A stretch of 45,780 bases of DNA from Armatimonadota bacterium (GTDB taxonomy: Bacteria; Armatimonadota; Zipacnadia; Zipacnadales; UBA5352): contig JAYENL010000149.1 of assembly GCA_034722055.1 (NCBI GenBank), positions 8,427 through 54,206 of the forward strand. Direction: 5' to 3'. Under the pieces are notes generated by a model. It did not search any database and was not told the origin of the DNA. It saw only the letters and a list, made by a program, of their open reading frames with translations. This document shows, in pieces, positions 6,390-45,780 of this stretch (within the stretch, counting starts at the first letter, position 1; the number at the start of each line of letters is the position of its first letter). The translations under genes were made by a program, and so were the position numbers.

Positions 6390-8486
6390 TCAGCCACGCA
6401 CGATCCTCACGATCCTGTGATCCCTTACGCCGCCGACCACGAATTCCATCCACCCCTCCGCCTCGCGGCACTCAAAGGCTTCGCCGGTCAGCGCATCCTC
6501 CGCGCCCGCGACCTCCCAGCCCGGCCGCACGCGCACCGTGATCGCATCCCGTCGCTCGAACGGGTCCAGGTACATGGCGTCCGTCTGCTTCTGCACGTGG
6601 ATCAGGTGCAGCAGCCACCCGCCCTCGTCCTGCATCAGCGAGTGCTTCACAGACACCGGCGCTTCAATGCGTATCTTCTCCGACACCCCCAGCACTTCGC
6701 GCAGCAGCGCCTCGAAGAGCGCCTTGAGATGCGGGCCGGCCTTCCGCGCATAGCCCTTCAGGACCGGCACCGGGAAGTACACGACCTGCCCCTCGCCGAA
6801 CTCGTTGAGCACGATCCCCGGATGCTTCGTCCGATGCCCCGGTGGCGCGTGGTCGTGGTAGACGTGGTAGCCGGTCTCGAAGTCGCTCTCGATGATGGGG
6901 TCCATGAGCCACGCCAGCGCCCTCGCGCCCTCCCGCAGCTGGACATACATGGGATGGTTCTTCGGGTTCAGCCGACCGCTGGCCTCATCCTTGATCAGCA
7001 GCGGCATCTCCGGCACATGCCCAGCGAGCGCCTCGTCCAGCCCGTCCAGGTAGCAGATGCTGAACTCAGAATCGGTGACGAGGCCCGCGCCGAACAGGTC
7101 CGCCAGCGCGAAGTCCTCCAGCCGCTGCCCGCGCTCGGAGAAGAGCGACGTGTGGTAATTCGCCGCCAGCCTCCCCCCGCCGCGCACGTACTCCCGGAGC
7201 CTGTCGCCAAGGTCATCGCTCACGTGCGGCATGTAAGGCAGCACCAGCAGCTCGTATCGTCTCATCTCCTCCAGCGAGAGGTCCTCGGTGCGAATCTCCC
7301 AGGGCGTGTGCGTCTCCATCAGAAGCTGCGCCAGCGCCTCCTCGTTCGAGTGTTGCTCCATGCGCAGATGCGCTGTCTCCTCCCGCTGCGCGATGGCCTG
7401 CAGCAGCCGGTTGTTGTACGCCGAGTGGAGGCTCGCGACCACCGGGACCGGCCGCCGGTCGCGGCACAGATCCTCGCGCTGGGCAACCCAGTCGAAGGCC
7501 TCGGCGATCGTGTCCCACACCACAGGCGGGACCTTGCCCGCGTAGTCGCCGCAGGGGTAGGGCACGTGGTTGATATTCAGCGCACCCGAATGTGACATCG
7601 CGATCGCCGCCAGCCCCTTGATCGTCTCCGGCGTGGTGATCGTCCAGTCCCCCCACGAGCCCTGGCTCTCGGGCATGAAGAGCGTAAAGGGCTTGCCCAG
7701 TCCCTCGCAGTAACGCGATCGATGGTCAGCGTGCAGGTAGCCGGGCGGATGCGCCTCCGTGGACAGGTAGTCCGCGCCCTCATCAAGCGTGGCGGAGATG
7801 GAGACGGGGTTCCCGCAGCCGTTCCACGACCAGCTCAGGCCCTCGCGCTCGCGGTTGCACGCGTCCATGGCATCACGGATGAAGCGCTCCCGCACGTGTG
7901 CCTGGTAGGTGAAGACGTCAAGCCACTGCCCCACGTCAAAACTCTCGGGCTCGAGCGGATACCCGAACATCGCCTGGAAGCCCTGGCGGCAGGCGTCGCA
8001 GAAGCAGCCGCCGGGGGCGAAGTACTGCAGATCGAGGAACCAGCCGTCGATCTGATAGTTGCGCGTCACCTCCGCCATGTGAGCGTTGACCATCTCGCTG
8101 AACTGAGCGTTGCTCATGCACGAGCAGGGATACCCGCACAGCAGCAGCGGCTCGCCGTCGGGCCTGACCTGGCGCCACCCGGGTTTGAGCTCCGCCAGCT
8201 CCCAGCTCAGGACCATGTTGTAGTACGCGATCATCTCCAGCCCCAGGGCCTTCGTGCGCTTCACGATCTCGCCGAAGATGTCGCCGCTCATGGCCGGGTT
8301 CGTGATCCCCACTTCGGTGGGGGCGAAGCTGCCGCCGTGCGCGGTCTTCACCTGAAAGATCAGGGCCTCGGCGCCAGTGCGCTCGATCTGCTCGAAGTAC
8401 TCGTCAAAGTCGATGGTGACCTCGGGCAGGAAGTTGGGCATATGCCAGTCGCAGAACAGCATCCGGGTGCTCAGCCGGCAGGCCAT
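6390..8486 (-). CDS. Glycoside hydrolase-like 6 / alpha-L-fucosidase-like protein with beta-galactosidase trimerisation domain
   Basis: DWHMP, KTAHGGSFAPT, YQIDGWFLD, CFCDAC motifs; C-terminal YELLVLP...LREYVRGGG...GEGQVVYF. No signal peptide. Confidence 0.7.
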   Translation of the reverse strand: MACRLSTRMLFCDWHMPNFLPEVTIDFDEYFEQIERTGAEALIFQVKTAHGGSFAPTEVGITNPAMSGDIFGEIVKRTKALGLEMIAYYNMVLSWELAELKPGWRQVRPDGEPLLLCGYPCSCMSNAQFSEMVNAHMAEVTRNYQIDGWFLDLQYFAPGGCFCDACRQGFQAMFGYPLEPESFDVGQWLDVFTYQAHVRERFIRDAMDACNREREGLSWSWNGCGNPVSISATLDEGADYLSTEAHPPGYLHADHRSRYCEGLGKPFTLFMPESQGSWGDWTITTPETIKGLAAIAMSHSGALNINHVPYPCGDYAGKVPPVVWDTIAEAFDWVAQREDLCRDRRPVPVVASLHSAYNNRLLQAIAQREETAHLRMEQHSNEEALAQLLMETHTPWEIRTEDLSLEEMRRYELLVLPYMPHVSDDLGDRLREYVRGGGRLAANYHTSLFSERGQRLEDFALADLFGAGLVTDSEFSICYLDGLDEALAGHVPEMPLLIKDEASGRLNPKNHPMYVQLREGARALAWLMDPIIESDFETGYHVYHDHAPPGHRTKHPGIVLNEFGEGQVVYFPVPVLKGYARKAGPHLKALFEALLREVLGVSEKIRIEAPVSVKHSLMQDEGGWLLHLIHVQKQTDAMYLDPFERRDAITVRVRPGWEVAGAEDALTGEAFECREAEGWMEFVVGGVRDHRIVRIVRG

Positions 8487-32970: not shown

Positions 32971-33532
32971 GGTGCGGCACCTCCCGGTAGTCAGTGTAGG
33001 CGCTGCCGCGTGATGATCGCCATCTCGCCCGCGAGCATCAGACCAGTGGGACGAGCTGGCGGAGAGCTTGTCCGATGTTGCCTGGTGCCGACACAGTGCT
33101 CCAGACGGTGAGAAGGGCCTATGGGGGTAAACCTCGCCTTTGTGAGGGCACGACTGCGCGCGATGGCCTGCCAGGGGCCGACGTGTCGGTAGTCTTCCGG
33201 CGGTGCCTGGGCGAGCAGTTGGTGATGCTGACACACCACCCCTTGGAGCGGACGCCCCTACAGTAACTCCCTCCGGTTCACGTAGCCTCGACCGACCATG
33301 GCGAGGGCCGTGTGCTGGCTGAGTTTGTTGATGATCTGCACAAGTGTATGTCGCTTCCGGCCCATCGTCCTGCCTGCCATGTCGGCCCGGATGCCTCACG
33401 GTCGAACATGACACCTGACCGATTCTGGGCGGGCAGGACGCTCTGGAAGAATATCTGTCAAGTCTTGTGGCGGACGGGGAGGGATGACAGGATGAGTTGA
33501 GGAACCTACAATCCTATAACACAGATCATCTT

Positions 33533-33737: not shown

Positions 33738-35363
33738 ATGAGTGAGGGCCCGAGTAGTCCGGAGCTTGTGGGGGACGACTGGTGTTGCGAGGCCCTGCTG
33801 GAACTGGCGAGACCGGAGATCTACTGCGAGAATCCCTTTCGGTTGCTTGAGGTCCCAATCGATGCAAGCTCGCGGGACATCTCGCGGCGATCCAGGAGAC
33901 AGCAGATTATGGAGAAGTACGGGGGAGGCGGCCGGCAGGGAACGGCCTCCGGACTATCGCTGCAGCTATCGGCGGAAGAGGATCAGGTGCAGGCGGCTCA
34001 GCAGCGGCTGAGAGACCCGGAGCGGCGACTCATCGATGAGCTGTTCTGGATCTGGCCTGAGGAGCCGGGGAAGTCGAAGCGCGACCAGGCCATCATGGCC
34101 TTGGGCAGAGGTGACCTGAACGAGGCTGGGCGGCTGTGGCGGGAGCGCGAGGAGGCCGGTGACAGCGACGGTGTCGCCACTCATAACCTGGCGGTCATCT
34201 ATCACGTCCTGGCCCTGGACTGGGAGCTCCGGGCGTTGGAGGCGTCGATCACGGCCGAGCAGCGCAAGCGCCAACATGCCTACTGGAAGCAAGCCTTGCC
34301 ACGCTGGCAGGAGCTGGAGAAGAAGGAGTTCTTCTGGAGTCGCCTCGCCGATCGCGTCCGGGAGCTCAATGATCCCCGGCTGACGACCGGGACGGCACGG
34401 CGCATACGGACGTCATTGCCGGTTGCGCTGCTGCTGATCAACGCGCAACTGGGGCTGCGTGCGGCTCGGGCAGGCGACAGGAACTGGGCCCGCGAGCACG
34501 CGAAGCTGATATGGAATTCCGGGTGGGGGCAGGAGGCGATTGACGAAGCGCTGTCGCGGGCGCTCAGGCCCCTCCGGGACCGCGTGAAGAGCCTCTGCCA
34601 GCAGGCTCGAACGAACAGTGACGCCGATCCCGCCGGGGGCGACGCGGTTGTTCAGGAGCTCATACACGGTACTCGCCAACCGCTGCGTATCATGGACTAC
34701 ATGCTGCCAAGGGGCAACCCGATGCGTCAGGCGGCACACGATGAGGTCGCGAATGCTGCGCTGGAGGTCCAGGTGAAGTTCGGGCGGGAGACGGAGGACT
34801 GGCAGCGGTCGGAGGAGCTGCTCAAAAGCGCCGCGGCCGTGGCGGAGGGCCAGGCCACACGCGAGCGGCTTGAGGACAACCTCAACACTGTACGCGAGAA
34901 CGCGCGCTACAAGCGGCTCGTAGAGAGGTGTTTCTTCTGCACTCGAGCTGCCGACGACGGCGCTGAGCTGGAGGTGCAGATGTACGGCAACATCACCCGC
35001 ACGCCCACCCTCGAAGGTACGCACGTAGAGTGGCAGAAGGCGGTCATCTCGGTCCCCCGCTGCAATCGCTGTAAGAAGGCCCACGGAAAGGCCGTGGGCC
35101 TGCCCTGCGGCCTGGGCTGCGCCGGCGCCATAGCCGCCCTCATCATCGCCGGCATCGTCAGCTCGGTGACCGGTGATAGCGACGCTGCAGCCGCGGCCTG
35201 GCTAGTGGGTACGTTCGTCCTGGGAGTGGGTGGCGCCGTGATGGGGTGGGCGATGGGTCAGGCGCAGAGGGGCGTGAAGCCGATCGAGCACCGAGACAAG
35301 TACCCGCCCATCCGGGAGCTTATATCTAAGGGATGGCAGTTCGGCGAGGGGCCGTCGGGCTGA
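33738..35363 (+). CDS. J-domain-like (HPD-less) / TPR-like protein with C-terminal Zn finger and two TM helices
   Basis: NPFRLLEVPIDASSRDISR (J helices I-II) and QAAQQRLRDPERRL (helices III-IV) without HPD; ATHNLAVIYH TPR-like helix; CFFC...CNRC; two hydrophobic segments; SD GAGGTG. Confidence 0.7.
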   Translation: MSEGPSSPELVGDDWCCEALLELARPEIYCENPFRLLEVPIDASSRDISRRSRRQQIMEKYGGGGRQGTASGLSLQLSAEEDQVQAAQQRLRDPERRLIDELFWIWPEEPGKSKRDQAIMALGRGDLNEAGRLWREREEAGDSDGVATHNLAVIYHVLALDWELRALEASITAEQRKRQHAYWKQALPRWQELEKKEFFWSRLADRVRELNDPRLTTGTARRIRTSLPVALLLINAQLGLRAARAGDRNWAREHAKLIWNSGWGQEAIDEALSRALRPLRDRVKSLCQQARTNSDADPAGGDAVVQELIHGTRQPLRIMDYMLPRGNPMRQAAHDEVANAALEVQVKFGRETEDWQRSEELLKSAAAVAEGQATRERLEDNLNTVRENARYKRLVERCFFCTRAADDGAELEVQMYGNITRTPTLEGTHVEWQKAVISVPRCNRCKKAHGKAVGLPCGLGCAGAIAALIIAGIVSSVTGDSDAAAAAWLVGTFVLGVGGAVMGWAMGQAQRGVKPIEHRDKYPPIRELISKGWQFGEGPSG

Positions 35364-35413
35364 TCCACCGGAAGAGGCGGAGGGGTGCCCGCCTGGCGGA
35401 ACCCGGCGGAAGC

Positions 35414-36016
35414 ATGAATGGAGAGCGCGACGAAATGGACGGGGACATCGGGAGCGTTTACCGAGAGCTGCGCTCGACCGGACTTGGCGGGCTGTGGGCC
35501 GGACTGCGACAGTTGCTGTTCCCCGCCGAGTTCCGGATTGGGCCCCCCGCGTGGCCGCCAGCGGGTCAGGACGGCCTCGAGGCACTCATGGCAGCCGTCA
35601 GCGAGGCGAGAGGGAGTGAGCCCAGCTCCCCAGAGGAGAGCAGAGGTCTGGTGGTTCGGGATAGAGTGGTGGCGGATCTGGCAACACAGCTCTGGCGCAT
35701 GCGCAAGAGAATGCTCGACGCGGACACTGGAGGGCCGCGCGAGGAGGTGCGGGGGGAGTACCGAGCCCTGGAGGCGGCGTGGGATGCGCTCAGCGAGGCG
35801 GGCGTGGACATTCGCGACTACACCGGGAAGCGGATGCCTCAGACGGGCTCCTACACGGTCAGCGTGCTGGCCTTCGAGCCCACGCCGGGTGTCACGCATG
35901 AGGTCATCACCGAGACGGTCAAGCCCTCTGTGTACTTCGATGGGGAGCGGATCCAGATGGCTGAGGTGGTCGTGGCCACGCCTGAGGACTCGGAGGAAAC
36001 AGCGCAAGAACAATAG
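35414..36016 (+). CDS. GrpE-like nucleotide exchange factor homolog
   Basis: LSEAGVDIRDYTGK...VLAFEP...ITETVKPSVYFDGERIQMAEVVV resembles the GrpE beta-head. Lies directly upstream of Hsp70. The start may instead be ATG 35435. Confidence 0.7.
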   Translation: MNGERDEMDGDIGSVYRELRSTGLGGLWAGLRQLLFPAEFRIGPPAWPPAGQDGLEALMAAVSEARGSEPSSPEESRGLVVRDRVVADLATQLWRMRKRMLDADTGGPREEVRGEYRALEAAWDALSEAGVDIRDYTGKRMPQTGSYTVSVLAFEPTPGVTHEVITETVKPSVYFDGERIQMAEVVVATPEDSEETAQEQ

Positions 36017-36106
36017 TACTCGGCGGAGGGCGAGACGGACGCCTGACGAAGCGCTTGTTTGAAGCCATCACGGGGCTGAGACGGACAGGTCGAGGGAGGC
36101 AGACGA

Positions 36107-38641
36107 ATGGCACGCCAGACAATTGACTTCGGCATTGACCTCGGCACCACCAACAGCGCCATCGCCGTCTTCGACGGCATCGAGGCCGAGGTCATCCCCA
36201 ACAACGAGAACCTGCCAATCACACCGTCGGCAGTGCGCATCGATGACTCAGGCGCCGTTACGGTGGGCAAGACGCCCCGGGAGCGCTACTTCAGAGACCC
36301 CGACAACGGCGCCATCGAGTTCAAGCGCCTGATGGGCGAGCAGGAGACCATCAGCTTCGCCGACAGCGGGCGGTCGATGACGCCCGCGGAGCTGTCAGCC
36401 GAGGTGCTCAAGTCGCTCAAGAGCGATGTTCAGCAGCGTGTCGGCGAGGAGCTGAACGCCGCGGTCGTCACCGTGCCCGCGGAGTTCGGACTGCCTCAAA
36501 ACAAGGCGACGGACAAGGCGGCGCAGTTCGCCGGCTTCTCCCAGCGGGTCCTGTTGCAGGAGCCGATAGCGGCGGCCCTGGCCTACGGCTTCCAGGCCGA
36601 GGACGAGGACGTGTTCTGGATGGTCTACGATATGGGCGGGGGGACCTTCGACGTGGCCATCATCCAGATGCGCGACGGGATGATCGAGGTCATCAACCAT
36701 GGTGGCGACCAGTACCTGGGCGGCAAGAACGTGGACGAGGCCATCGTCAAGGACCTGCTCATCCCCCAGGTCGTGTCCAGGTACGACGTCAGCGACTTCC
36801 GGCTGGGCAACGAGAAGTGGCGAGTGCCTCTGGCCAAGCTCAGACTCTCAGCCGAGGACGCCAAGATCCGGCTCTCGCGCCAGCCGACAGCGCAGGTGGA
36901 CATCGACTACCTGGGCAACGACGACCGCGGTCAGCCTATGGCGGACTTCCTCGTCGAGGTCTCGCAGGCCGATGTCGAGCGCATACTCGAGCCGATGATC
37001 GTGCGCACCATCAACGCTGCCAGGAAGGTGCTGGAGGAGAAGCGGCTCAGTCCCGGTGACATCGAGCGACTGCTGCTTGTGGGCGGCCCCACTGCTACCC
37101 CTTACCTCCGCCAGCGTCTGGAGGACCCCACCAGCGGACTGGGGATACCGCTGGATTTCAGCCAGGACCCGATGACGGTCGTGGCCTGTGGCGCGGCGAT
37201 CTTCGCGGGCACCCAGCGGCTTGAGGAGGCGATGGGGCCCGCCGTGACGGTCGAGCCGGGGCAGTACCGGATCGAGCTTGAGTACGATCCGATCGGGCCC
37301 GACCCGGACCCGTTGATCGGAGGGAAGGTGATCGCCCAGGAGGGCGGCGACGTATCGGGCTTCACGATCGAGTTCGTCAACCGGAGCCTGCCTCACGACG
37401 ATGAGTGGCGCAGCGGCCAGGTCCCTCTGGGGCCGGATGGCACCTTCACGACGGTGCTGTTCGCAGAGCGGGGTCTACCCAATGAGTTCGGGATTGACCT
37501 GCGGGATGCCACCGGAAGCGCTCTGCCGGCAGTGCCCGAGTCCATCACCTACACCGTCGGGGGCGTGCCGGACCGGCCGATCCTGACGCACTCCCTGGGC
37601 GTGGCGATGGCGAACAACGAGGTCGATCGGTTCTTCGAGAAGGGCACGCCGCTGCCCGCCCGGGCGCGCAGCAAGCACAAGACAACCGTCGCGGTGAGGC
37701 GGGGCGGGCAGCACGAGGAGCTGATCCGCATCCCGGTCGTTCAGGGAGAGAACACGGTGCGTGCCGACCGCAATAAGCTCGTCGGCGCGCTGGAGATCAC
37801 GCCTGACGAGATCAGGCGCGATGTGCGGCAGGGCAGCGAGGTTGACATCACCATCGAGATCGATGAATCCCAGCGCGTACTCACCAAGGCCTGGGTGCCG
37901 GTGCTGGACGAGGAGTTTGAGGAGGTGCTGGACCTCAACCCGCCCCCGCCGGATGTGGGCGCACTGCAGCGTGAGGTCAGTGAGGAGAGGCGGCGACTGA
38001 CCGAGGCCAGGCAGCAGGCCATTGAGACAGGCGATCCTGTGGCGCGAGAGGCACTCGACCGCATTGAACAGGAGCGCCTGCTCGAGTCCGCCGAGGGATC
38101 GGCCGAGGCGGCCGCAGAAGGCCAGAAAGACGCCGCCCGGCAGTGTCAGGACCTGCTGCTGCGGCTCAGGTCCGCCGTTGACGAGGTCGAGGATGCCCTG
38201 CAGTGGCCGGCCCTGGTGTCGAAGGCTGAAGAGGCCATCGAGGAGGCGGAGAGGCTGGTTAGCGACCCCGAGATCGCGGCCCACGGCGGCGGCAGCGTGG
38301 ACGCCGAGGTGCGTGCGCTCCGCGAGGCCATCCAGCAGAAGGACCGTGACACGCTGCAGGCGCGCCTGGATGACCTCCAGCGGAAGGTCGTTGAGGTTCT
38401 CCAGAAGCACCCGGCCTTCTGGGTCGCCCTGTTCGAGCACCTGCAGGGGCTGCAGCTTCAGATGACTGACCAGGCCCAGGCCCAGCAGCTCATCGCTCGG
38501 GGCCAGCAGGCCATTGCCGACGGCGACGTTGCGTCCCTCCAAGGCGTCTGCCAGCAGCTCGTCGCGTTGGTGCCCGGTGAGGTGGCAATGCCCGAAGGCG
38601 TCCCTGGCGGTCTCATAGGAACCACAACCAAGTTCTGGTAA
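36107..38641 (+). CDS. Atypical Hsp70/DnaK-family protein (844 aa)
   Basis: GIDLGTTNS, VVTVPAEF, LLQEPIAAALAYG, VYDMGGGTFDVAI, LLVGGPT; substrate-binding-like HSLGV...KGTPLP; long helical C-terminus; SD GGGAGG. Confidence 0.95.
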   Translation: MARQTIDFGIDLGTTNSAIAVFDGIEAEVIPNNENLPITPSAVRIDDSGAVTVGKTPRERYFRDPDNGAIEFKRLMGEQETISFADSGRSMTPAELSAEVLKSLKSDVQQRVGEELNAAVVTVPAEFGLPQNKATDKAAQFAGFSQRVLLQEPIAAALAYGFQAEDEDVFWMVYDMGGGTFDVAIIQMRDGMIEVINHGGDQYLGGKNVDEAIVKDLLIPQVVSRYDVSDFRLGNEKWRVPLAKLRLSAEDAKIRLSRQPTAQVDIDYLGNDDRGQPMADFLVEVSQADVERILEPMIVRTINAARKVLEEKRLSPGDIERLLLVGGPTATPYLRQRLEDPTSGLGIPLDFSQDPMTVVACGAAIFAGTQRLEEAMGPAVTVEPGQYRIELEYDPIGPDPDPLIGGKVIAQEGGDVSGFTIEFVNRSLPHDDEWRSGQVPLGPDGTFTTVLFAERGLPNEFGIDLRDATGSALPAVPESITYTVGGVPDRPILTHSLGVAMANNEVDRFFEKGTPLPARARSKHKTTVAVRRGGQHEELIRIPVVQGENTVRADRNKLVGALEITPDEIRRDVRQGSEVDITIEIDESQRVLTKAWVPVLDEEFEEVLDLNPPPPDVGALQREVSEERRRLTEARQQAIETGDPVAREALDRIEQERLLESAEGSAEAAAEGQKDAARQCQDLLLRLRSAVDEVEDALQWPALVSKAEEAIEEAERLVSDPEIAAHGGGSVDAEVRALREAIQQKDRDTLQARLDDLQRKVVEVLQKHPAFWVALFEHLQGLQLQMTDQAQAQQLIARGQQAIADGDVASLQGVCQQLVALVPGEVAMPEGVPGGLIGTTTKFW

Positions 38642-38674
38642 AGGACCCCGCGTGACTGGAGAGAGGGACGTGCC

Positions 38675-39370
38675 ATGGCCGACACAGGCGGGCACCAGCG
38701 TGCCGCCGGCGATGCACAGCCTGGCCTGACAGCGCTCGTCGCGCAGGTGACGGTCGCGAGGGCCACGGAGCTGGCCCGGCGCGGACGATATGAGCGGGCC
38801 GAGCAGCTCATCGACACCCTATCCCCAGCGCAGCGATCGGCTCCAACGGCGCTGGACATCCTCGCACGCATTCGCGCCCAGCGCGGGGACCTGCTCGGGG
38901 CGGCGTCACTATGGCACCGGGCTCTGGAGCAGGATCCGCACAACGAGGCGTACCGCGCCGCTCTGGGGCGCATCGGTGGACTGCAGCGCCGGCCGCGATG
39001 GACCTCAGTCCTGCTGCCGCTCATCCTCACGGTCCTGGTCGGGGCGGGGGTGGTCTGGGCCGGGTTGTGGGCCGATTCCCGCTTTGGCGCCATCGAGACC
39101 AGCCAGCGGTCCCACATGGCGATGATCACGAGAGCGATCGACGGCGTGGATGAGGCGCTGGACGGCGTCGAGCAGAAGCAGAAGGCCCTGGCGGCGCAGG
39201 TGGATGAACTGGCGGCCGACGAGGCGGAGCTGGCGCGGACGCTGCAGGGCAGAGCAGACAGGCTGGACGGGCAGTTGGCCTGGCAGAAGCGTCAGCTTGG
39301 AGGGCTGCATACGCAGGTGCAGCGACTGCGAGACCAGGTCTCAGAGCTGGAGACCACGCCCGCGCACTGA
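38675..39370 (+). CDS. TPR + single TM + coiled-coil membrane protein
   Basis: ALDILARIRAQRGDLLGAASLWHRALEQDPHNEAYRAAL (TPR); VLLPLILTVLVGAGVVWAGLW (TM); heptad-rich C-terminus. Confidence 0.75.
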   Translation: MADTGGHQRAAGDAQPGLTALVAQVTVARATELARRGRYERAEQLIDTLSPAQRSAPTALDILARIRAQRGDLLGAASLWHRALEQDPHNEAYRAALGRIGGLQRRPRWTSVLLPLILTVLVGAGVVWAGLWADSRFGAIETSQRSHMAMITRAIDGVDEALDGVEQKQKALAAQVDELAADEAELARTLQGRADRLDGQLAWQKRQLGGLHTQVQRLRDQVSELETTPAH

Positions 39371-39482
39371 CGTACGCTTCGGCGGCCGCGGGTCAGCAGT
39401 TGCTGGCCTGTGGCGCGCCTTCTCGGGATCCCGATCCGAGACGAAGCTATGGTACCGCACCTGCACCTTCCGAGGTCGGGAC

Positions 39483-40052
39483 ATGGCAATGGGAACGCGA
39501 CCGTGCGACGAAGAGCTTGCTGCCGCGGCCGCCGCGGGGGATGATGCGGCCTTCGAGGCGCTCTTCCAGCGGCTCTATCACAGCGCATACGCCGCGGCCC
39601 TCAGGTCCGTCGGCGACGACGAGGCCGCCCAGGACATCGCCATGCAGGCCTTCGCCAACGCATACGTCGCGATGGCGGACGGCCGCTTCGATCCCGATCT
39701 GTGCACGTCTTTTAAGGCCTACCTCCTGCGCATCGTCTCCAACCTGTGCATAAGCCTCTGGCGCCGATCCCGCCTGGACACGGTGAGCCTCAACGCCGGG
39801 TCTGATGACGCGCCTGCAGTGGACCCGCCTGATCCGGGCGCGGGCCTCGACAGCCGTGTGGATCTCCTGGCCATCGAGCAGGCCTGGCCGGAGCTGTCCT
39901 GGGCGGAGCGGACCGTGCTGTTGCGCAAGTACTGGGCCGAGGAGACGTGGGCTGAGGTGGCCGAAGCCATGGGCATGGCCCCGCACCAGGCCAGATACTT
40001 GGCAGGCAGGGCGAGGCGCAAGATCCAGGCTGCGGGAGACAGGATGGTCTGA
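39483..40052 (+). CDS. ECF (sigma-70 group 4) RNA polymerase sigma factor
   Basis: DEELAAAAAAGDDAAFEALF, AQDIAMQAF, SFKAYLLRIVSNLCISLWRR (region 2); LSWAERTVLLRKYWAEETWAEVAEAMG (region 4); SD GAGGT. Confidence 0.9.
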   Translation: MAMGTRPCDEELAAAAAAGDDAAFEALFQRLYHSAYAAALRSVGDDEAAQDIAMQAFANAYVAMADGRFDPDLCTSFKAYLLRIVSNLCISLWRRSRLDTVSLNAGSDDAPAVDPPDPGAGLDSRVDLLAIEQAWPELSWAERTVLLRKYWAEETWAEVAEAMGMAPHQARYLAGRARRKIQAAGDRMV

Positions 40053-40070
40053 GAACAGCCGTCGTTGGTT

Positions 40071-40100
40071 CGCAGTTCTGTGAGCACGCGCGTATCTATG
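40071..40100 (+). promoter_or_regulatory. Candidate ECF promoter between sigma and anti-sigma genes
   Basis: cgCAG-N15-CGTATctATG, just upstream of the anti-sigma start. Confidence 0.4.
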
Positions 40101-40117
40101 TACAGGGGACATCGAGC

Positions 40118-40876
40118 ATGAGCGATCGGGCATTCACTGCGGCGATCAAGAAGTGGTGGGAGCGTGAGGCACAGAGACTGCGCCGGGATCGACCGCTGCC
40201 CCGCACCGACGGCTGTCTGTCGTGGCAGCAGGCCTACCGGCTGGCGGGAGGCGGCTCCGAGGACGCATTGCCCGAGGCCACCCGGCGTCACGTCGGACAG
40301 TGCCAGCATTGCCGCAGGCTCGTGAGGGCCTTTGAAGCGGCCCTGGGCGACGTCCCGGTCGCCAAACAGAGAGGAGACAGCGCTATGAGCGAACCCGGTA
40401 TCTGGGAGAGCGTGAGGGAGGGCGTGCACCGGCTGAAGGGGGCGCTGGAGATCTCCCTGACGGGAGCGGCTGGCGCGGGGGCCCAGCCGACACTGGCGTA
40501 TGCGTGGCGGGGCGCCGAGGACGAGGAGGGGCAGGAGCCGCCCCTGGCGGACGTGGAGCAGAGCTCGCCGTCGTCATTGAAGACGGGCCTGGAGTTCCCG
40601 GAGCTGGGGGTGGGCCTGGAGCTGGAGGTGGAGAGGAAAGAGCCGTCCATGCAGGTCAGCGTGCAGGCCCGGCCCTACTTTCCCGACACGGAGGTGCGCT
40701 GCGAGGACATCAGGGTCGTCTTCCGCAGGTCGAGCGGGGAGGAGATGATGGCCTGCTGGCTGGGGGAGGGCGATGAGATGACGATCCCGCGTGTGGACGG
40801 CGGGCAGTTCGTGTTCGTCATCACGAGCCCCGATGTCCCCAGCATCTACGAGATTCCGCTGGCAGTGCTGGCCTGA
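40118..40876 (+). CDS. Putative soluble zinc-finger (zf-HC2/ZAS) anti-sigma factor
   Basis: GCLS...RHVGQCQHCRRLV (H-x3-C-x2-C) directly downstream of an ECF sigma. No TM helix; beta-rich C-terminal domain. Confidence 0.8.
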   Translation: MSDRAFTAAIKKWWEREAQRLRRDRPLPRTDGCLSWQQAYRLAGGGSEDALPEATRRHVGQCQHCRRLVRAFEAALGDVPVAKQRGDSAMSEPGIWESVREGVHRLKGALEISLTGAAGAGAQPTLAYAWRGAEDEEGQEPPLADVEQSSPSSLKTGLEFPELGVGLELEVERKEPSMQVSVQARPYFPDTEVRCEDIRVVFRRSSGEEMMACWLGEGDEMTIPRVDGGQFVFVITSPDVPSIYEIPLAVLA

Positions 40877-40906
40877 GACGCCGCCGCCAGCGTAGGAGGC
40901 ACGAGG

Positions 40907-43330
40907 ATGGTCCCCCGAGAGCTGGCTATATCGCGGCACGGCCAGACCTATGAGTTCCACCGACGGCTTCTTGTGCAGGACGCCGGTGCCGGCCCATGGC
41001 GGCCGAAGCCGGACCACAAGTTCGTCGATGACCCCACGCTCCACAGGCTGCTGTCGATGGTGGACGCACTGCACCGGCGCTCCAAGCCGGTGACGCGCCA
41101 GGCCGTGCTGGGCGTGGGCCGCTTCATCGACGACTACTTCCTTCCAGACCAGGTGCGGGAAGAGCTGCAGACCATGGAGACGTCGGTGGTGGTGGTCACC
41201 GAGGACCCCCGCATCCCATGGGAGCTGGCAGGAGTGGTCGGGGAGGGGCCAGAGGCGACCTGCCTGGGCGAACGCGTCCGCGTCGGCCGCTGCCTGTGGG
41301 CGCAACTGAGTGCCAGACGGCTGCCCGCGGACCAGGAGCAGGAGCACCCCGCCGAGGAGAGGCCCCGCGCCCTGGTCATCGCCGACCCCCTGGAGGAGCT
41401 GGCGGAGGCCCGGGCGGAGGCCCAGTACCTCACCGGCCGACTCAGCGAGCTGGGCTGGAAGGTGGACAGCATCTTCGGGCGCCAGTGCACCTACGACCTG
41501 CTCTTCGATGCTCTGTCGGCGGGTCGCTACCGGTTCGTGCATCTGTGCTGCCACCTCGTGGAGCACCAGACGGGAGGGGCCATACCCACCAGCACCGATC
41601 CCCTGGCCGCCGGGACGGTGGCGAACTTCGACATGCACCGGCAGGTGGTCTACCTCAACGCCTGTCGCTCCGCGGTGCACTCCGACGAGGGCGTCGCCGA
41701 GGAGGGGATATCCCCCATGGTGGCCGGGATGGCGCAGGCCTTCATCGAGGCCGGGGCCTCCGGCGTGGTGGGGAGTCTGTGGAAGACCGAGGACTACACC
41801 AGCCGGGTGTTCGCCGAGGAGTTCTACCGGGGGCTGATGCACACCGGCAGCCTGGGCGCAGCCCTGCTCATGGCCAAGAAGCTCAACCTCGAGCCGGACG
41901 ACGAGAGGCTGGAGGCGGGGACGCTGTCGGGGTTCGTGCTCTACGGGGACCCCGACATACGCATCGCGGCCCCGGCGCCACCGCCCGCCGCTGAGGCTGC
42001 TGAGGCGCCCCGCGAGTGGCCGCCGAGGGGGTGGTTCGATGACCGGGCCAGCGAGGCCGTGCGGCGGGCGGCGCTGCTGACCGAGCTCGGTGGCGGCGCC
42101 ATGACCTCCCTGCACCTTGGCTGGGCGCTGATCGCCGATGACGACGCCCCGCTGGCGAGCTGGATGCGCGATGCCCGGCACCCGCTGGGCAACGCCCGCG
42201 CCATCGCTGCGGCCCTGGCCGGCGTGCCCGAGGAGGACGACTGGCAGGCCGGGCAGCCGGCCCAGCCGGAGATGAGCGCCACTGTGGAGACCATCTGGGA
42301 GTGGGTCGAGGAGGCCCGGGCCGGAGGGCGCATCACGCTGGCGCAGCTCTCCGAGCAGTTCGCCGGGGCCGGCGGGGGGATGATGGGCGAGCTGCTTGAG
42401 TGGCTGTGTATCGACCTCTCCGACTACCCCCGGGTGCCCAGGGCTGTGCCGCTCTCCGAGCGGGCGGCGGAGGCGGTCGAGAACGCGCAGGATACCGCGA
42501 AGTGGAGCGAGGGCGTGGTCAGCAGCGCCCACCTGCTGCTGGGCATCCTGGAGGTCGGCGGCGGCCCCCTGTCGGGGTGGCTGCGCAGCGTGGGGCTGGA
42601 CCCTGACCAAGCCACTGAGAAGCTGCGCGAGGCCCTCCTGGAGGGCGAGCCCGATCCGGCCATCGATGAGACCTCGCTGTCGATCAACGCCGGCCGCATC
42701 CTGGCGACGGCCCGGCGGCGCGCCCGGGAGTCCGAGCGCGGCGAGGTGCTCATCGCCGACATCGTGGACGCCGCTGCGGAGCTGCACGCCGGCACCTTCG
42801 GCCGGCTGCTGGCGGCGTGGAAGTACCCGGGGGCCGGGGAGGCCGAGGGCGTACCCGATGTCGCCTCCGGCGCCGCTGAGGACGCCGCCGAGGCCTGGAA
42901 CCTCGCCCCCGAGACCATGGAGCTGGTGGTGGCCGGGGCCCGTATCGCGGCGGCGTGTGGGCACCGTGTGGTGGGCACCCCCCACGTGGTGGCGGCCGGC
43001 CTCCGGATCAGCGAGCCGCTGAGCAGCGCCGTGCGTGCCGTGGGGTATGATCCCGATCAGGTTCTGGCCGGCATCCTGGCGGCGATGGGCGCTCCCGAGG
43101 GCACAGATGCCTTGGAGGCAACGCCCCGGACCGAGGACATCGCTCCCTCATCGAACCTCCGGCAATCCGTGCGCCGGGCCCACGAGCGGGCGGGCAGCGG
43201 TGCTCCGCTGACGCCGGAGCAGCTACTGATAGCCGTCCTCACTCAAGCGACAGGATCGACGCTCGCGATCCTGCAGCGGATGGGCATGGAGCCGTATCGG
43301 ATAGTAAGGGCGCTCGAGGAGCAGGCATAG
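40907..43330 (+). CDS. CHAT (caspase-like) protease fused to tandem Clp N-terminal repeats
   Basis: IPWEL, ALVIADP..L..A..EA, RFVHLCCH (His), VYLNACRS (Cys), GMAQAFIEAGASGVVGSLW, FVLYGDP; then six Clp-repeat-like units such as PLSERAAEAVENA...VSSAHLLLGIL. Confidence 0.85.
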   Translation: MVPRELAISRHGQTYEFHRRLLVQDAGAGPWRPKPDHKFVDDPTLHRLLSMVDALHRRSKPVTRQAVLGVGRFIDDYFLPDQVREELQTMETSVVVVTEDPRIPWELAGVVGEGPEATCLGERVRVGRCLWAQLSARRLPADQEQEHPAEERPRALVIADPLEELAEARAEAQYLTGRLSELGWKVDSIFGRQCTYDLLFDALSAGRYRFVHLCCHLVEHQTGGAIPTSTDPLAAGTVANFDMHRQVVYLNACRSAVHSDEGVAEEGISPMVAGMAQAFIEAGASGVVGSLWKTEDYTSRVFAEEFYRGLMHTGSLGAALLMAKKLNLEPDDERLEAGTLSGFVLYGDPDIRIAAPAPPPAAEAAEAPREWPPRGWFDDRASEAVRRAALLTELGGGAMTSLHLGWALIADDDAPLASWMRDARHPLGNARAIAAALAGVPEEDDWQAGQPAQPEMSATVETIWEWVEEARAGGRITLAQLSEQFAGAGGGMMGELLEWLCIDLSDYPRVPRAVPLSERAAEAVENAQDTAKWSEGVVSSAHLLLGILEVGGGPLSGWLRSVGLDPDQATEKLREALLEGEPDPAIDETSLSINAGRILATARRRARESERGEVLIADIVDAAAELHAGTFGRLLAAWKYPGAGEAEGVPDVASGAAEDAAEAWNLAPETMELVVAGARIAAACGHRVVGTPHVVAAGLRISEPLSSAVRAVGYDPDQVLAGILAAMGAPEGTDALEATPRTEDIAPSSNLRQSVRRAHERAGSGAPLTPEQLLIAVLTQATGSTLAILQRMGMEPYRIVRALEEQA

Positions 43331-43390
43331 ACCGGCCGGCGGCCCATCGCTCCCACAGCCGCCGGTGCAGGCGATGGGGAGCCGGAGGGT

Positions 43391-43595
43391 GCTTCCCGCT
43401 CTCGGGCAGCGCGGATGGAACCCTCTGCCTCTGGGACTTCGACTGGGAGTGGGAGCCGGCCGAGGACGAGGAGTGAAAGGCGGGAGGGGGCGATCTTCGC
43501 CGACGAGATCTGGCGGATCGCCCTGGGCTGGAGGCATGAGAGGGTAGGAGACGGTCGGGGCCGTCAAGGAGCGAGGAGGGGAGAAGCGATGGCTA
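43391..43595 (+). repeat. Copy 1 of a ~205-bp imperfect direct repeat (WD40 gene 3' end + intergenic + start codon)
   Basis: Aligns with 44436-44641 at an offset of ~1045: TTCGACTGGGAGTGG, GGACGAGGAGTGAAAGGCGG, GGGCGATCTTCGCC, ACGAGATCT, ATGAGAGG, GGGAGAAGCG(A/G)TGGCTA. Confidence 0.9.
43393..43476 (+). pseudogene. Orphan 3' end of a paralogous WD40 gene
   Basis: Encodes FPLSGSADGTLCLWDFDWEWEPAEDEE*, compared with FALSGSSDNTLRLWQFDWEWQAVGDEE* in the intact gene. Confidence 0.8.
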
Positions 43596-44521
43596 AGAGC
43601 GACGCGATGAAGGCCGGGATCTCGTATGTGAGGCGCATGCGCAGCAAGGGCGTGCCCGATGAGCGCATCAGAGCCAGCCTGCGCTCATCGGGGTGGTCAG
43701 AGGCCGCTATCGAGCACCTGTGGGCACGACTGGGGCGACGGAGATCTCGCGGCGGAGGGCAGGCAGCCGGGGCCGCCGCGAGAGTAAAGCAACTATTGGA
43801 GGGCATCGCTGATGCCATCGAGCGGGGGGCGGGCAGGGACGTGATGGCCCTTGCCGGAGAGATGCGTGAGCTGCCGGGGTACGAGCTGGACGAGAGGGAC
43901 CCGACACTACTTGCGCATTTGGCGGAAGCCGGACGGGACGGCATCCTCACGCGAACGGGACTGCGCGACGCATGGCACGTGCGAACCTTCGAAGAGCACG
44001 ACTGGTCCGTGGAGTCCGTCGCCATCAGCCCGGACGGGTGGTTCGCGCTCTCGGGTGCCGGTGGCGGGCTTCTCCCCCACGACAACACCGTCCGCCTGTG
44101 GGAGCTCGACAGCGGCCAGTGCCTCCGGGTTTTCAAGGGACACACGGCCTGTGTGAACTCCGTGGCCATCAGCCCCGACGCGCGGTCCGCACTGTCGGGG
44201 AGCTCCGACAAGACTCTCCGCGTCTGGGACTTTGACAGTGGCGACTGCGTGCGCACCTTGAGAGAGCACAGGGACTGCGTCAACGCTGTCGCCATCAGCC
44301 CCCACGGGCGGTTTGGGCTGTCGGGGGGCGGAGACAAGACTCTCCGCCTGTGGGACCTGGACAGCGGGCAGTGCCTGCGGACCTTGCACGGACACACGGA
44401 CGGCGTTTACGCGGTCGCCATCAGCGCGGATGGGCGCTTCGCGCTGTCGGGGAGCTCGGACAACACCCTCCGGCTGTGGCAGTTCGACTGGGAGTGGCAA
44501 GCGGTCGGGGACGAGGAGTGA
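43589..44521 (+). CDS. WD40 repeat protein (four repeats) with N-terminal helical domain
   Basis: Four GH...VAISPDG..ALSG..DKTLRLWD-type repeats; N-terminal YVRRMRSKGVPDERIRASLRSSGWSEAAI; SD GAGGAGGGG before ATG 43589. Confidence 0.85.
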   Translation: MAKSDAMKAGISYVRRMRSKGVPDERIRASLRSSGWSEAAIEHLWARLGRRRSRGGGQAAGAAARVKQLLEGIADAIERGAGRDVMALAGEMRELPGYELDERDPTLLAHLAEAGRDGILTRTGLRDAWHVRTFEEHDWSVESVAISPDGWFALSGAGGGLLPHDNTVRLWELDSGQCLRVFKGHTACVNSVAISPDARSALSGSSDKTLRVWDFDSGDCVRTLREHRDCVNAVAISPHGRFGLSGGGDKTLRLWDLDSGQCLRTLHGHTDGVYAVAISADGRFALSGSSDNTLRLWQFDWEWQAVGDEE

Positions 44522-44641
44522 AAGGCGGAACCGGGCGATCTTCGCCTACGAGATCTTGCGGATCGGCGTGCGCTTGACGTATGAGAGGATGGGAGGCAGT
44601 CGAGGCCATCAGGGAGCAAGGGATGGGAGAAGCGGTGGCTA
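44436..44641 (+). repeat. Copy 2 of the ~205-bp imperfect direct repeat
   Basis: Matches 43391-43595. Contains the candidate promoter CGG-N16-CGTAT (44559-44582) and GTG 44635. Confidence 0.9.
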
Positions 44642-45780
44642 CCAGCGTGGCGATGTTCCGCCTCGGGCGATGGGACGAGGCCCTGGAGCTGGCCGAGCAG
44701 ATGACCGAGGACGATCCGGCGCAGCCCGCGGTTCGAGGCATCTGCGGGACGCTCACCCGCCTCCCGCTGGAGCTGGGCACGCGGTGCCCGGCGGCGCCCG
44801 AGGACCTGGACGGGATCGAGGCGGAGCTCGGCAGGGCTCGCGCCGCCGGCTGGTCGGAGGTTGAGGCATGCTTCGGCTGGGTAAGGCTGCTGCGGAGTTC
44901 GGCGACGCCCTCTCCCGAGGACCTCCCGCAGCTTGCGGCACTGGCGGATGCTGCGGGCAAGAGCGCCTGGACGCCCATAAGGGGCCTGGCGGGCCGCGCG
45001 CTGGCCTTCTATGACATGCGCCGGCAGGCAGTTGGCCGCCTCAGTGATGCCGCGGGAGCAGCCGAGGGGGACCTGGCAATGCTGGAGGCGAGACTGGAGG
45101 CCGGCCGGCTTGGCGAGTTCCGCGCCGGGGACGTGCCGGAGCCGACTCCCCCGCTTCCCGCCTGGCTTCATCATGAGTGGCGCCTGCTTCTGCAGGCGGA
45201 GGTGCTGACGCAGGACGAACGGGCCCTGGACGCGGCTGAGCGCACACTGGGGCTACTGGTGGAGCGATGGCGGCGGGAGCCGGAGCCGGCCGAGAGCGAT
45301 GGATACGCGCAGGCCGAGCGGCGCCGGCTGCGCGCTCGCGGGCTGGTGGCGCGAGCCCGGCTGGCTCTGGCCCGGAATCGGCCCGACCTGGCGGCGGAGC
45401 ACCTCGACGCCGAAGGCGCCGAGCATCTCCCGGAGTGGGAGCGGGTCTACCTGCGAGCGCTGGCGGACTGGCAGGCGGGCGATCTCGACGCAGCCCACGA
45501 TGGTCTCAGAGGCTCGTTGCGGGCGAATCCCATGCAGCGGCGTGTGAGGCAGGAGCTGGGCTCGTTGATCGCCGGCCGCAGGCCACAGGAGGCGCTGGAG
45601 CATATCGACGCCGGGCCCCACTCCCCCGGCCTGGTCGGCGCCCGCGCGGCCGCGCTGCTGGCCCTGGGTCGCGACCGGGAGGCTGCGGAGGCCCTGGAGC
45701 GGCTTGAGGACCCACCTCTGGTGTGCTTCCCGCGCCTGAGCTGGCCCGACGGGCAGAGAGCTCGGGTCCGGCAGGCGTGG
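44635..45780 (+). CDS. Partial (3'-truncated) TPR-like helical protein
   Basis: Frame 1 is open from 44581 to the window end and is absent from the ORF track. FRLGRWDEALELAEQM, YLRALADWQAGDLDAAHDGLRGSLRANP, ARAAALLALGRDREAAEAL. Alternative starts at 44581 and 44623. Confidence 0.7.
   Translation, partial: MATSVAMFRLGRWDEALELAEQMTEDDPAQPAVRGICGTLTRLPLELGTRCPAAPEDLDGIEAELGRARAAGWSEVEACFGWVRLLRSSATPSPEDLPQLAALADAAGKSAWTPIRGLAGRALAFYDMRRQAVGRLSDAAGAAEGDLAMLEARLEAGRLGEFRAGDVPEPTPPLPAWLHHEWRLLLQAEVLTQDERALDAAERTLGLLVERWRREPEPAESDGYAQAERRRLRARGLVARARLALARNRPDLAAEHLDAEGAEHLPEWERVYLRALADWQAGDLDAAHDGLRGSLRANPMQRRVRQELGSLIAGRRPQEALEHIDAGPHSPGLVGARAAALLALGRDREAAEALERLEDPPLVCFPRLSWPDGQRARVRQAW

Follow-up and report, generated by a model that had tools for sequence, protein, structure and literature searches.

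Is a run of nine co-oriented genes for chaperone-like proteins, a sigma factor and a putative protease one system or several? The question is raised by a locus in an Armatimonadota bacterium (assembly GCA_034722055.1, here G000; estimated completeness 92.7%). We analysed a stretch of 45,780 nucleotides, the window, which covers positions 8,427 to 54,206 of contig JAYENL010000149.1 (C149), and the genes g1 to g9 occupy its last 12 kb (Table 1). They encode a J-like protein, a GrpE-like protein, an atypical Hsp70 (Hsp70a), a TPR protein with a transmembrane (TM) helix, a sigma factor of the extracytoplasmic function (ECF) class, a zinc anti-sigma factor, a CHAT-ClpN protein, a WD40 protein and a TPR protein. 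The initial annotation read them as a single system, in which a membrane-anchored Hsp70 cassette activates the CHAT protease and the protease cleaves the anti-sigma factor. The comparison of genomes showed a mosaic of three separable modules with separate distributions: module A (g1-g4), module B (g5-g7) and module C (from g9 on). We read module B as a protease-gated sigma switch for the chaperone and conflict genes behind it, and module A as its neighbour, not its gate. We give this reading a probability of about one half.

Module B begins with the sigma factor and its predicted inhibitor. Orthologues of g5 are 71% identical in G411, which belongs to another genus, and 41% identical in G352. 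The g6 protein has no Pfam match. Among its neighbours in the Atlas, zf-HC2 occurs at 0.95 (in 23-62% of members), and C33, H58, C62 and C65 are invariant in three orthologues. g6 and g7 are separate genes; neither product shows a hydropathy peak, and g6 has no TM helix. A model of g5 in complex with residues 1-120 of g6, a check that the initial annotation had proposed, scored 0.88, versus 0.00 for the best of three controls; the partner had a predicted local distance difference test score (pLDDT) of 71, and the runs agreed in at least 75% of contacts. The mark set for such models is reached by 116 of 157 solved pairs and by 2 of 215 mismatched pairs. g6 is thus predicted to bind g5, although complexes of ECF sigma factors with zinc anti-sigma factors have been solved and the score may show likeness to them only.

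The sigma and anti-sigma genes lie directly 5' of the CHAT-ClpN gene in G000, G411 and G352. CHAT-ClpN itself is rare: of 401 genomes in the phylum 4 have a close orthologue, and of 67 in the order 5. The anti-sigma alignment matched 2 of the 401 genomes in the phylum sample, and gave no match in G158, G176 or G413. Outside the phylum, 35 CHAT genes fetched with a broader alignment were examined. A protein with an HxxxCxxC motif is encoded directly 5' of 16 of them, each time with a sigma factor before it (15 by profile). Two of these trios are CHAT-ClpN loci of Bryobacterales (both loci found there); the other 14 come from one other class, carry CHAT without ClpN and are kin, not independent cases. 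The ECF sigma factor, soluble zinc anti-sigma factor and CHAT(-ClpN) protein are therefore found as a portable trio in three lineages, also without Hsp70, and the original grouping of these three genes holds.

Two side observations concern such trios. In the class of G424 (L141, L137, L151-L161, L169), a sigma factor, a soluble zinc anti-sigma factor with an Arg-Gly linker motif and a CHAT gene are conserved, and the L141 CHAT protein has a hydrophobic segment and a FlgT_C-like end; these trios are candidates for a separate, membrane-coupled switch. In G663 (L171:3727-12539), two apparent protease/sigma/anti-sigma sets stand in tandem: an open reading frame (ORF) of 962 residues with sigma-like and anti-sigma-like ORFs (read by eye), then a sigma factor, a zinc anti-sigma factor and CHAT-ClpN.

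Module A has a distribution of its own. With an alignment of g1 (42 of 61 relatives), 125 stretches were confirmed across the genome collection; the best 80 of them correspond to 76 loci in Chloroflexota, Planctomycetota, Acidobacteriota, Verrucomicrobiota, Bacteroidota, Actinomycetota and other phyla. No orthologue of g5, g6 or g7 was found near any of the 76 loci by tblastn, nor did a g6 profile match there. The same holds for CHAT genes, searched with a profile of 150 sequences that recovers all four CHAT genes of G000. Of the 53 loci where the end of Hsp70a is complete, 40 continue for at least 3 kb past it, a span that would take in the place of g7 in this locus. Full-length CHAT-ClpN is present in the whole genomes of two of the 76 loci, with CHAT-domain matches only in six more. 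In one of the two, G426, an apparent adjacency to module A was rejected, the coordinates being close but the contigs different in length (692,077 and 463,159). The other, G427, is apparently the same assembly as G176, where module A and CHAT-ClpN also lie on different contigs. On these neighbourhood counts the single nine-gene system was rejected, and the notion of g1-g4 as a dedicated gate of the protease is not supported, the trio also occurring without the cassette. In G411, 169 nucleotides (73%) of the 3' end of g4 lie just 5' of the sigma gene, with the rest of module A absent, which implies that the junction between modules A and B predates both genomes and that module A was lost in G411.

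The Hsp70 module that goes with CHAT-ClpN is a second one, outside the window. Module C continues 3' of it at C149:54307-64140 and encodes, in order, a TPR protein, a ClpN-AAA+ protein (659 residues, one Walker A motif), a Ser/Thr kinase, a TPR protein, a small J-like protein (183 residues; weak J-like match, E 0.045), a GrpE-like protein, Hsp70b (844 residues, about 29% identical to the Hsp70a family) and a Zn-TPR protein. Identity to the G411 locus is 59-81%, and the order of modules B and C is kept there at 75-78% DNA identity. All five genomes of the order with CHAT-ClpN are among the ten read as having an atypical Hsp70 (Fisher P 2.6e-5 in the order and 0.0016 in the family, both inflated by kinship); the Hsp70 of G352 is of another type. 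CHAT-ClpN lies physically beside a Clp/kinase/GrpE/Hsp70 operon in four of the five.

The G411 locus, joined from two contigs (C67 and C49) that overlap by 65 nucleotides, also shows what surrounds these modules. Its order is sigma, anti-sigma, CHAT-ClpN, a TM protein, two DO-GTPases, TPR, ClpN-AAA+ (81%), kinase (78%), TPR, J-like, GrpE-like, Hsp70b (81%), Zn-TPR, Hsp70-vWA, GrpE, Hsp70, an fn3-like protein (E 1.5e-4, below cut-off), a DO-GTPase and GAP1-N2 (E 1e-14). The TM gene and the two DO-GTPases occupy the slot that g8 fills in G000, where no match to DO-GTPase2 (PF19993) or GAP1-N2 (PF20013) was found in the genome and none to fn3 among the proteins of the locus. In G352 a DO-GTPase comes after the trio, where the contig ends. 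For G176 (one contig) and G158 (joined by a 99-nucleotide overlap), an operon with genes for Hsp70-TIR, Clp AAA+, a kinase, a GrpE-like protein and further Hsp70 proteins is oriented divergently from CHAT-ClpN. The initial placing of CHAT in a chaperone and conflict context is therefore supported: an atypical Hsp70 machine accompanies CHAT-ClpN, and in relatives DO-GTPase/GAP1-N2 or TIR genes do so too. As a side observation, four atypical proteins with a C-terminal TIR domain on Hsp70 occur in L098, L123, L124 and L126 (G176 and G158), and Hsp70-vWA in L119.

Whether CHAT-ClpN acts as a protease bears directly on the switch. The CHAT alignment holds the 150 of 153 sequences that passed the coverage filter, 90 of them with a ClpN-like region. 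At the dyad columns, 141 of the 150 have His and 147 have Cys; g7 has both (His216 and Cys253), as do the CHAT proteins of all 16 trio loci outside the phylum. Cleavage is thus possible and, with Asp at the His position in four of six close orthologues, not obligatory. The idea that loss of a Gly after the catalytic His marks a dead protease was dropped, a hydrophobic residue being normal there in this subfamily in the 150-sequence alignment. A sequence search of the PDB with the g7 CHAT domain gave one unrelated weak match. A metagenome scan with the CHAT-ClpN alignment gave three loci, all distant CHAT-only matches that were set aside.

A candidate cut site lies in the linker of g6, at R131-G132 (40508-40513). 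Arg-Gly is also present in the G411 anti-sigma factor and, in one aligned linker column, in 13 of the 16 anti-sigma factors from outside the phylum. According to PMC11506125, separases cut after Arg and craspase sites vary.

From these elements we propose the following mechanism. The zinc anti-sigma factor g6 is predicted to hold g5 with residues 1-76. Input would reach g7 at its ClpN repeats, a type of domain that binds adaptors and clients, and may be an adaptor, a client or the condition of the ClpN-AAA+/Hsp70b machine. The CHAT domain would then release the sigma factor, here probably by cutting the g6 linker and, in relatives with Asp in place of His, by binding only. Freed g5 would transcribe the downstream island. 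Module A would act as an ATP switch tethered to the membrane and served by J-like and GrpE-like partners of its own; it would normally be coupled to a kinase and here lacks the usual upstream one. The most likely role of the whole is to signal conflict or stress, not to fold proteins in bulk. A bolder form of the proposal, which we hold to be unlikely, is that the trio is an undescribed portable cytoplasmic switch whose ClpN repeats would sense the condition of a private Hsp70-Clp machine and whose CHAT domain would cut the anti-sigma factor at the Arg-Gly linker; folding stress would be the trigger for an immune island, and close relatives would keep a protease-dead scaffold form.

Several observations weigh against the proposed reading. 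The catalytic His is replaced by Asp in four of the six close full-length orthologues with a readable site (that of G352 is unreadable). These include the G411 protein, which is 73% identical to g7 and sits in an intact trio. A tree joins the two proteins (100/100), so that one loss with a reversal and two losses are equally parsimonious, and His216 may have been retained or regained. CHAT-ClpN is present without an anti-sigma match in G158 and G176. The initial claim that CHAT cleaves the anti-sigma factor is therefore compatible with the intact dyad of g7 and weakened as a conserved step. The Arg-Gly site is absent from the G352 anti-sigma factor. Homology of the C-terminal half of g6 to other CHAT-linked anti-sigma factors was not shown by hhalign, with an E value of 0.3 against 0.24-0.98 for 20 shuffles, and for this reason the motif is a lead only. 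No conserved promoter was seen 5' of the sigma gene in the three aligned upstream regions (three genomes), and no Hsp70 module was found beside the Bryobacterales trio in the DNA fetched for G426. PADLOC, another check proposed at the outset, returned only generic single-domain matches (kinase, AAA+, WD40, TPR and a weak BovA), with its system rules not applied. The compared genomes include kin and are not independent. Finally, a chance neighbourhood of modules A and B does not explain their shared ancestral junction well.

Parts of this evidence fit other readings. CHAT-ClpN could chiefly serve the ClpN-AAA+/Hsp70b machine, as its adaptor or effector and often as a pseudo-protease, with the sigma factor sharing the operon only and freed otherwise, by zinc loss, Clp-driven unfolding or the kinase. 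The Asp substitutions favour this, and so does gene position, since CHAT-ClpN stands beside the Clp/Hsp70 operon in four of five genomes and beside the sigma pair in three of five. ClpN-bearing genes are also common beside module A: the family occurs in 29 of the 76 loci, and Clp_N matched 14 of the 27 short members scanned. The order sigma, anti-sigma, CHAT in two other lineages, with 16 of 16 dyads intact there, argues against this, as does the dyad kept in g7 and nearly all aligned relatives. We regard such a main role as adaptor or effector as rather unlikely. A single system, with the membrane cassette of J-like protein, GrpE-like protein and Hsp70a sensing a signal and activating the CHAT protease to cut the anti-sigma factor, would account for the tight co-orientation of the nine genes and for the age of the junction marked by the g4 remnant. 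The presence of both parts in G176 and of some sigma factor near module A (profile matches in 18 of the 76 loci) would also suit it. Against it stand the complete lack of g5, g6 and CHAT near the 76 loci, the presence of full-length CHAT-ClpN in only two of the 76 genomes, in neither of which it was seen on the module-A contig, and the loss of module A from G411 with the trio kept. The usual partner of module A is moreover a kinase, which ends within 1.5 kb 5' of g1 in 49 of the 63 loci with room upstream. This scheme appears unlikely.

It is also conceivable that the modules were gathered in one island without functional links and that the Hsp70 sets are back-up folding chaperones. Patchy distributions, a variable slot with a direct repeat and unrelated carbohydrate-enzyme neighbours would suit such an island. 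Ordinary folding is hard to match with the loss of the HPD motif in all 85 J-like domains of the g1 family, the corresponding change in Hsp70a and its inserted domain, as described below. The order of modules B and C preserved in another genus, and, in two further genomes, the meeting of CHAT-ClpN with a Clp/Hsp70 operon that is more distant, also speak against mere assembly, to which we assign little probability. A protease-gated sigma switch remains our likely reading of module B. The g7 protein with His216 and the Asp orthologue 73% identical to it share one gene order and form a natural pair for judging the need for cleavage.

The HPD-less Hsp70 cassette of module A is a broad family in its own right. 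Near g1, tblastn found g2 in 63, Hsp70a in 60, a kinase in 58, g4 in 35 and Clp AAA+ in 13 of the 76 loci; counted as a family, g4 is present in 43. No kinase lies 5' of g1 in the window. The J-like domain of g1 spans about residues 25-105 and is followed by a TPR-like helical solenoid, a CxxC...CxxC β hairpin and two TM helices. A profile of the N-terminus from 85 family sequences gave 13 PDB matches at E<=10, all to J-domain proteins (best E 0.048). Pfam DnaJ matched three of the 85. C398, C401, C442 and C445 are invariant in the 42 aligned sequences. The whole-protein model (pLDDT 91) gave generic helical-repeat matches in a fold search, and none at E<=0.001 in Foldseek, the J-like part not having been folded separately. 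Beyond the conserved 390 residues, tails of family members (L014-L089) carry RDD, HEAT, ankyrin, SH3, TPR, DUF4190, cyclophilin or no Pfam match, a variability that resembles sensor-swapping systems. The g2 protein of the window has no Pfam match, and Pfam GrpE matched 21 of 63 members of its family (best E 3.7e-5); against the PDB the best GrpE match was weak (E 0.3). Homology of the g2 family to GrpE is supported, and nucleotide-exchange activity is putative. In G176 (L108:16823-17962), homologues of g4 and g2 are fused in one ORF of 379 residues, so that the TM helix would precede the GrpE-like part.

Hsp70a consists of an ATPase domain, an inserted Ig-like β sandwich of about 100 residues, a substrate-binding β domain and a long helical tail. 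The ATPase motifs GIDLGTT, K, EP and DxGGGTFD are invariant in 50 of 50 full-length orthologues. The Arg of the DnaK RIINEP motif, the J-domain contact R167, is Val in the window protein and Pro in 44 of the 50 orthologues; among the 48 residues shown it is never Arg. In a model of residues 366-625 (pLDDT 92), the substrate-binding domain was recognized (Foldseek E 2e-8; Z 12.9, root mean square deviation 2.4, 113 aligned), and the inserted sandwich has a common fold (best Z 9.5, root mean square deviation 3.2, 101 aligned). Hsp70a scored 270.7 bits against the DnaK equivalog, below the cut-off of 822.55. The housekeeping DnaK and DnaJ are encoded on contig C29 and GrpE on C21, and together with the lost HPD motif this bears out the initial view that the chaperones of the locus are distinct from the housekeeping set. 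In the g4 family, 13 of 44 members end in an OmpA domain. By sequence features, module A may be an envelope-tethered Hsp70 switch with altered J-Hsp70 coupling. As a side observation, several loci rich in Verrucomicrobiota (L029, L049, L053, L060, L070) have a sigma factor and a GYF-type protein 5' of the kinase.

Table 1. Features of the locus, in window coordinates.
Feature	Position	Strand	Evidence and remarks
Sigma-70-like promoter match, weak	33484..33512	+	5' of g1; 10/12 positions; 1 seen versus 0.6 expected in shuffles; not evidence of function
g1, module A: HPD-less J-like + TPR-like solenoid + two TM helices, 541 residues	33738..35363	+	Profile, model, hydropathy
g2, module A: short divergent GrpE-like, about 200 residues	35414..36016	+	Pfam GrpE matches in family
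g3, module A: atypical Hsp70 (Hsp70a), 844 residues	36107..38641	+	HSP70 domain, ATPase motifs, fold matches
g4, module A: TPR + one TM helix + coiled coil, 231 residues	38675..39370	+	Domain calls, hydropathy
g5, module B: ECF sigma factor, 189 residues	39483..40052	+	TIGR02937, 68 bits versus cut-off 42.9
g6, module B: soluble CHCC zinc anti-sigma factor, linker, C-terminal domain	40118..40876	+	Profile neighbours, invariant Cys/His
g7, module B: CHAT (caspase fold) + ClpN repeats, without AAA+, 807 residues	40907..43330	+	Pfam
190-nucleotide direct repeat, first copy	43387..43576	+	Second copy at 44432-44621, 80% identical; both flank the WD40 gene g8
g8: WD40, four repeats, in variable slot	43589..44521	+	Pfam; not conserved in orthologous locus
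g9, start of module C: TPR, about 780 residues	44581..45780	+	Runs past the window across the assembly gap

The nine ORFs are separated by 50, 90, 33, 112, 65, 30, 258 and 59 bp, which agrees with the initial description of co-oriented genes with short gaps. Its gene labels also stand, by domain and profile evidence: HSP70 (E 3e-75), Sigma70_r2/r4, CHAT (E 1e-22), Clp_N (E 5e-15), WD40 and TPR were matched in the window with Pfam and NCBIfam. The nine genes lie at the stated place. The locus does not end at the window edge and extends about 10 kb further on C149, with eight co-oriented ORF stretches after an assembly gap (100 N, with a 127-nucleotide duplication). The N-terminus of g9 is shorter than in the G411 orthologue. 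The first copy of the 190-nucleotide repeat resembles the 3' end of an earlier WD40 gene, and the repeat around g8 suggests duplication or cassette exchange in a variable slot. Upstream, window positions 1100-32834 hold large genes with carbohydrate-active or lectin domains, a DUF1559 gene and DUF1846, unrelated to the present finding. Near the contig end, a tyrosine recombinase-like ORF and a recombinase-related fragment (C149:75085-76230 and 80943-81608, read by eye) make a mobile element 11 kb from the locus possible.

How does the locus compare with known systems? A literature search found no description of a sigma/soluble anti-sigma/CHAT-ClpN trio or of either Hsp70 cassette, with most subscription papers outside its reach. 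Compared to DnaK-DnaJ-GrpE with ClpB, the locus shares Hsp70 ATPase motifs, a substrate-binding fold, J-like and GrpE-like partners, a Clp-type AAA+ protein and ClpN domains. It differs in the missing HPD, the replaced RIINEP Arg and extra domain of Hsp70a, the DnaK score below cut-off and the housekeeping set encoded elsewhere. EACC1-protease-DnaK fusions likewise tie a DnaK-like chaperone to a cysteine-protease defence module, suggesting chaperone-based sensing; in those systems (PMC12642450), a pore serves as the effector, and the fused DnaK-like domain lacks a lid and shares about 50% identity with DnaK. In the present locus no parts are fused, and a match to an EACC1 family did not appear.

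The surroundings resemble the HSP70/GrpE theme of GAP1-N2 DO-GTPase systems (Kaur et al. 2020, PMC7159879), which combines dedicated HSP70 and GrpE, TPR or DnaJ-type partners, membrane components and a predicted conflict role. The present locus has two dedicated HSP70-GrpE pairs, and the tail of the G411 locus, from Hsp70-vWA to GAP1-N2, matches the theme; G000 itself gave no DO-GTPase2 or GAP1-N2 match. In the available part of PMC7159879, the description of the theme does not include an HPD-less J-like protein, ClpN-AAA+, CHAT-ClpN or a sigma pair. Two of its supplements gave no HSP70, GrpE or Armatimonad match; the neighbourhood tables may lie outside these and could list such loci.

The middle of the locus resembles two systems in which CHAT meets a sigma factor. 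DdvS/DdvA of Myxococcus xanthus shares an ECF sigma factor held by a CHCC zinc anti-sigma factor, together with a CHAT domain and the control of a defence island. DdvA is a single membrane protein whose TPR-CHAT part is periplasmic, and its CHAT autoproteolysis is proposed, not demonstrated, in PMC11506125. In contrast, g6 lacks a TM helix and CHAT stands as a protein of its own that carries ClpN repeats. Features in common with type III-E Csx29/Csx30/CASP-sigma (PMC10028731) are a sigma factor, an inhibitor of it built with a linker and a C-terminal domain, and a CHAT protease in the cytoplasm. Here CHAT is fused to ClpN, not TPR, the inhibitor is a zinc anti-sigma factor, and no Cas family was matched among the 17 protein stretches of the locus that were scanned; the whole genome was not searched for Cas7-11. 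By this comparison, the middle of the locus would work as DdvS/DdvA or Csx29/Csx30 do and its surroundings as the GAP1-N2 HSP70 theme does, and the locus belongs to none of these. CHAT control of sigma factors is characterised in type III-E CRISPR, where the trigger is RNA, and proposed for DdvA, where it is periplasmic. If our reading is true, a soluble CHAT protein with ClpN repeats, tied to Hsp70/Clp machines and GAP1-N2 loci, would be a third input, linking chaperone cycles to immune gene control.

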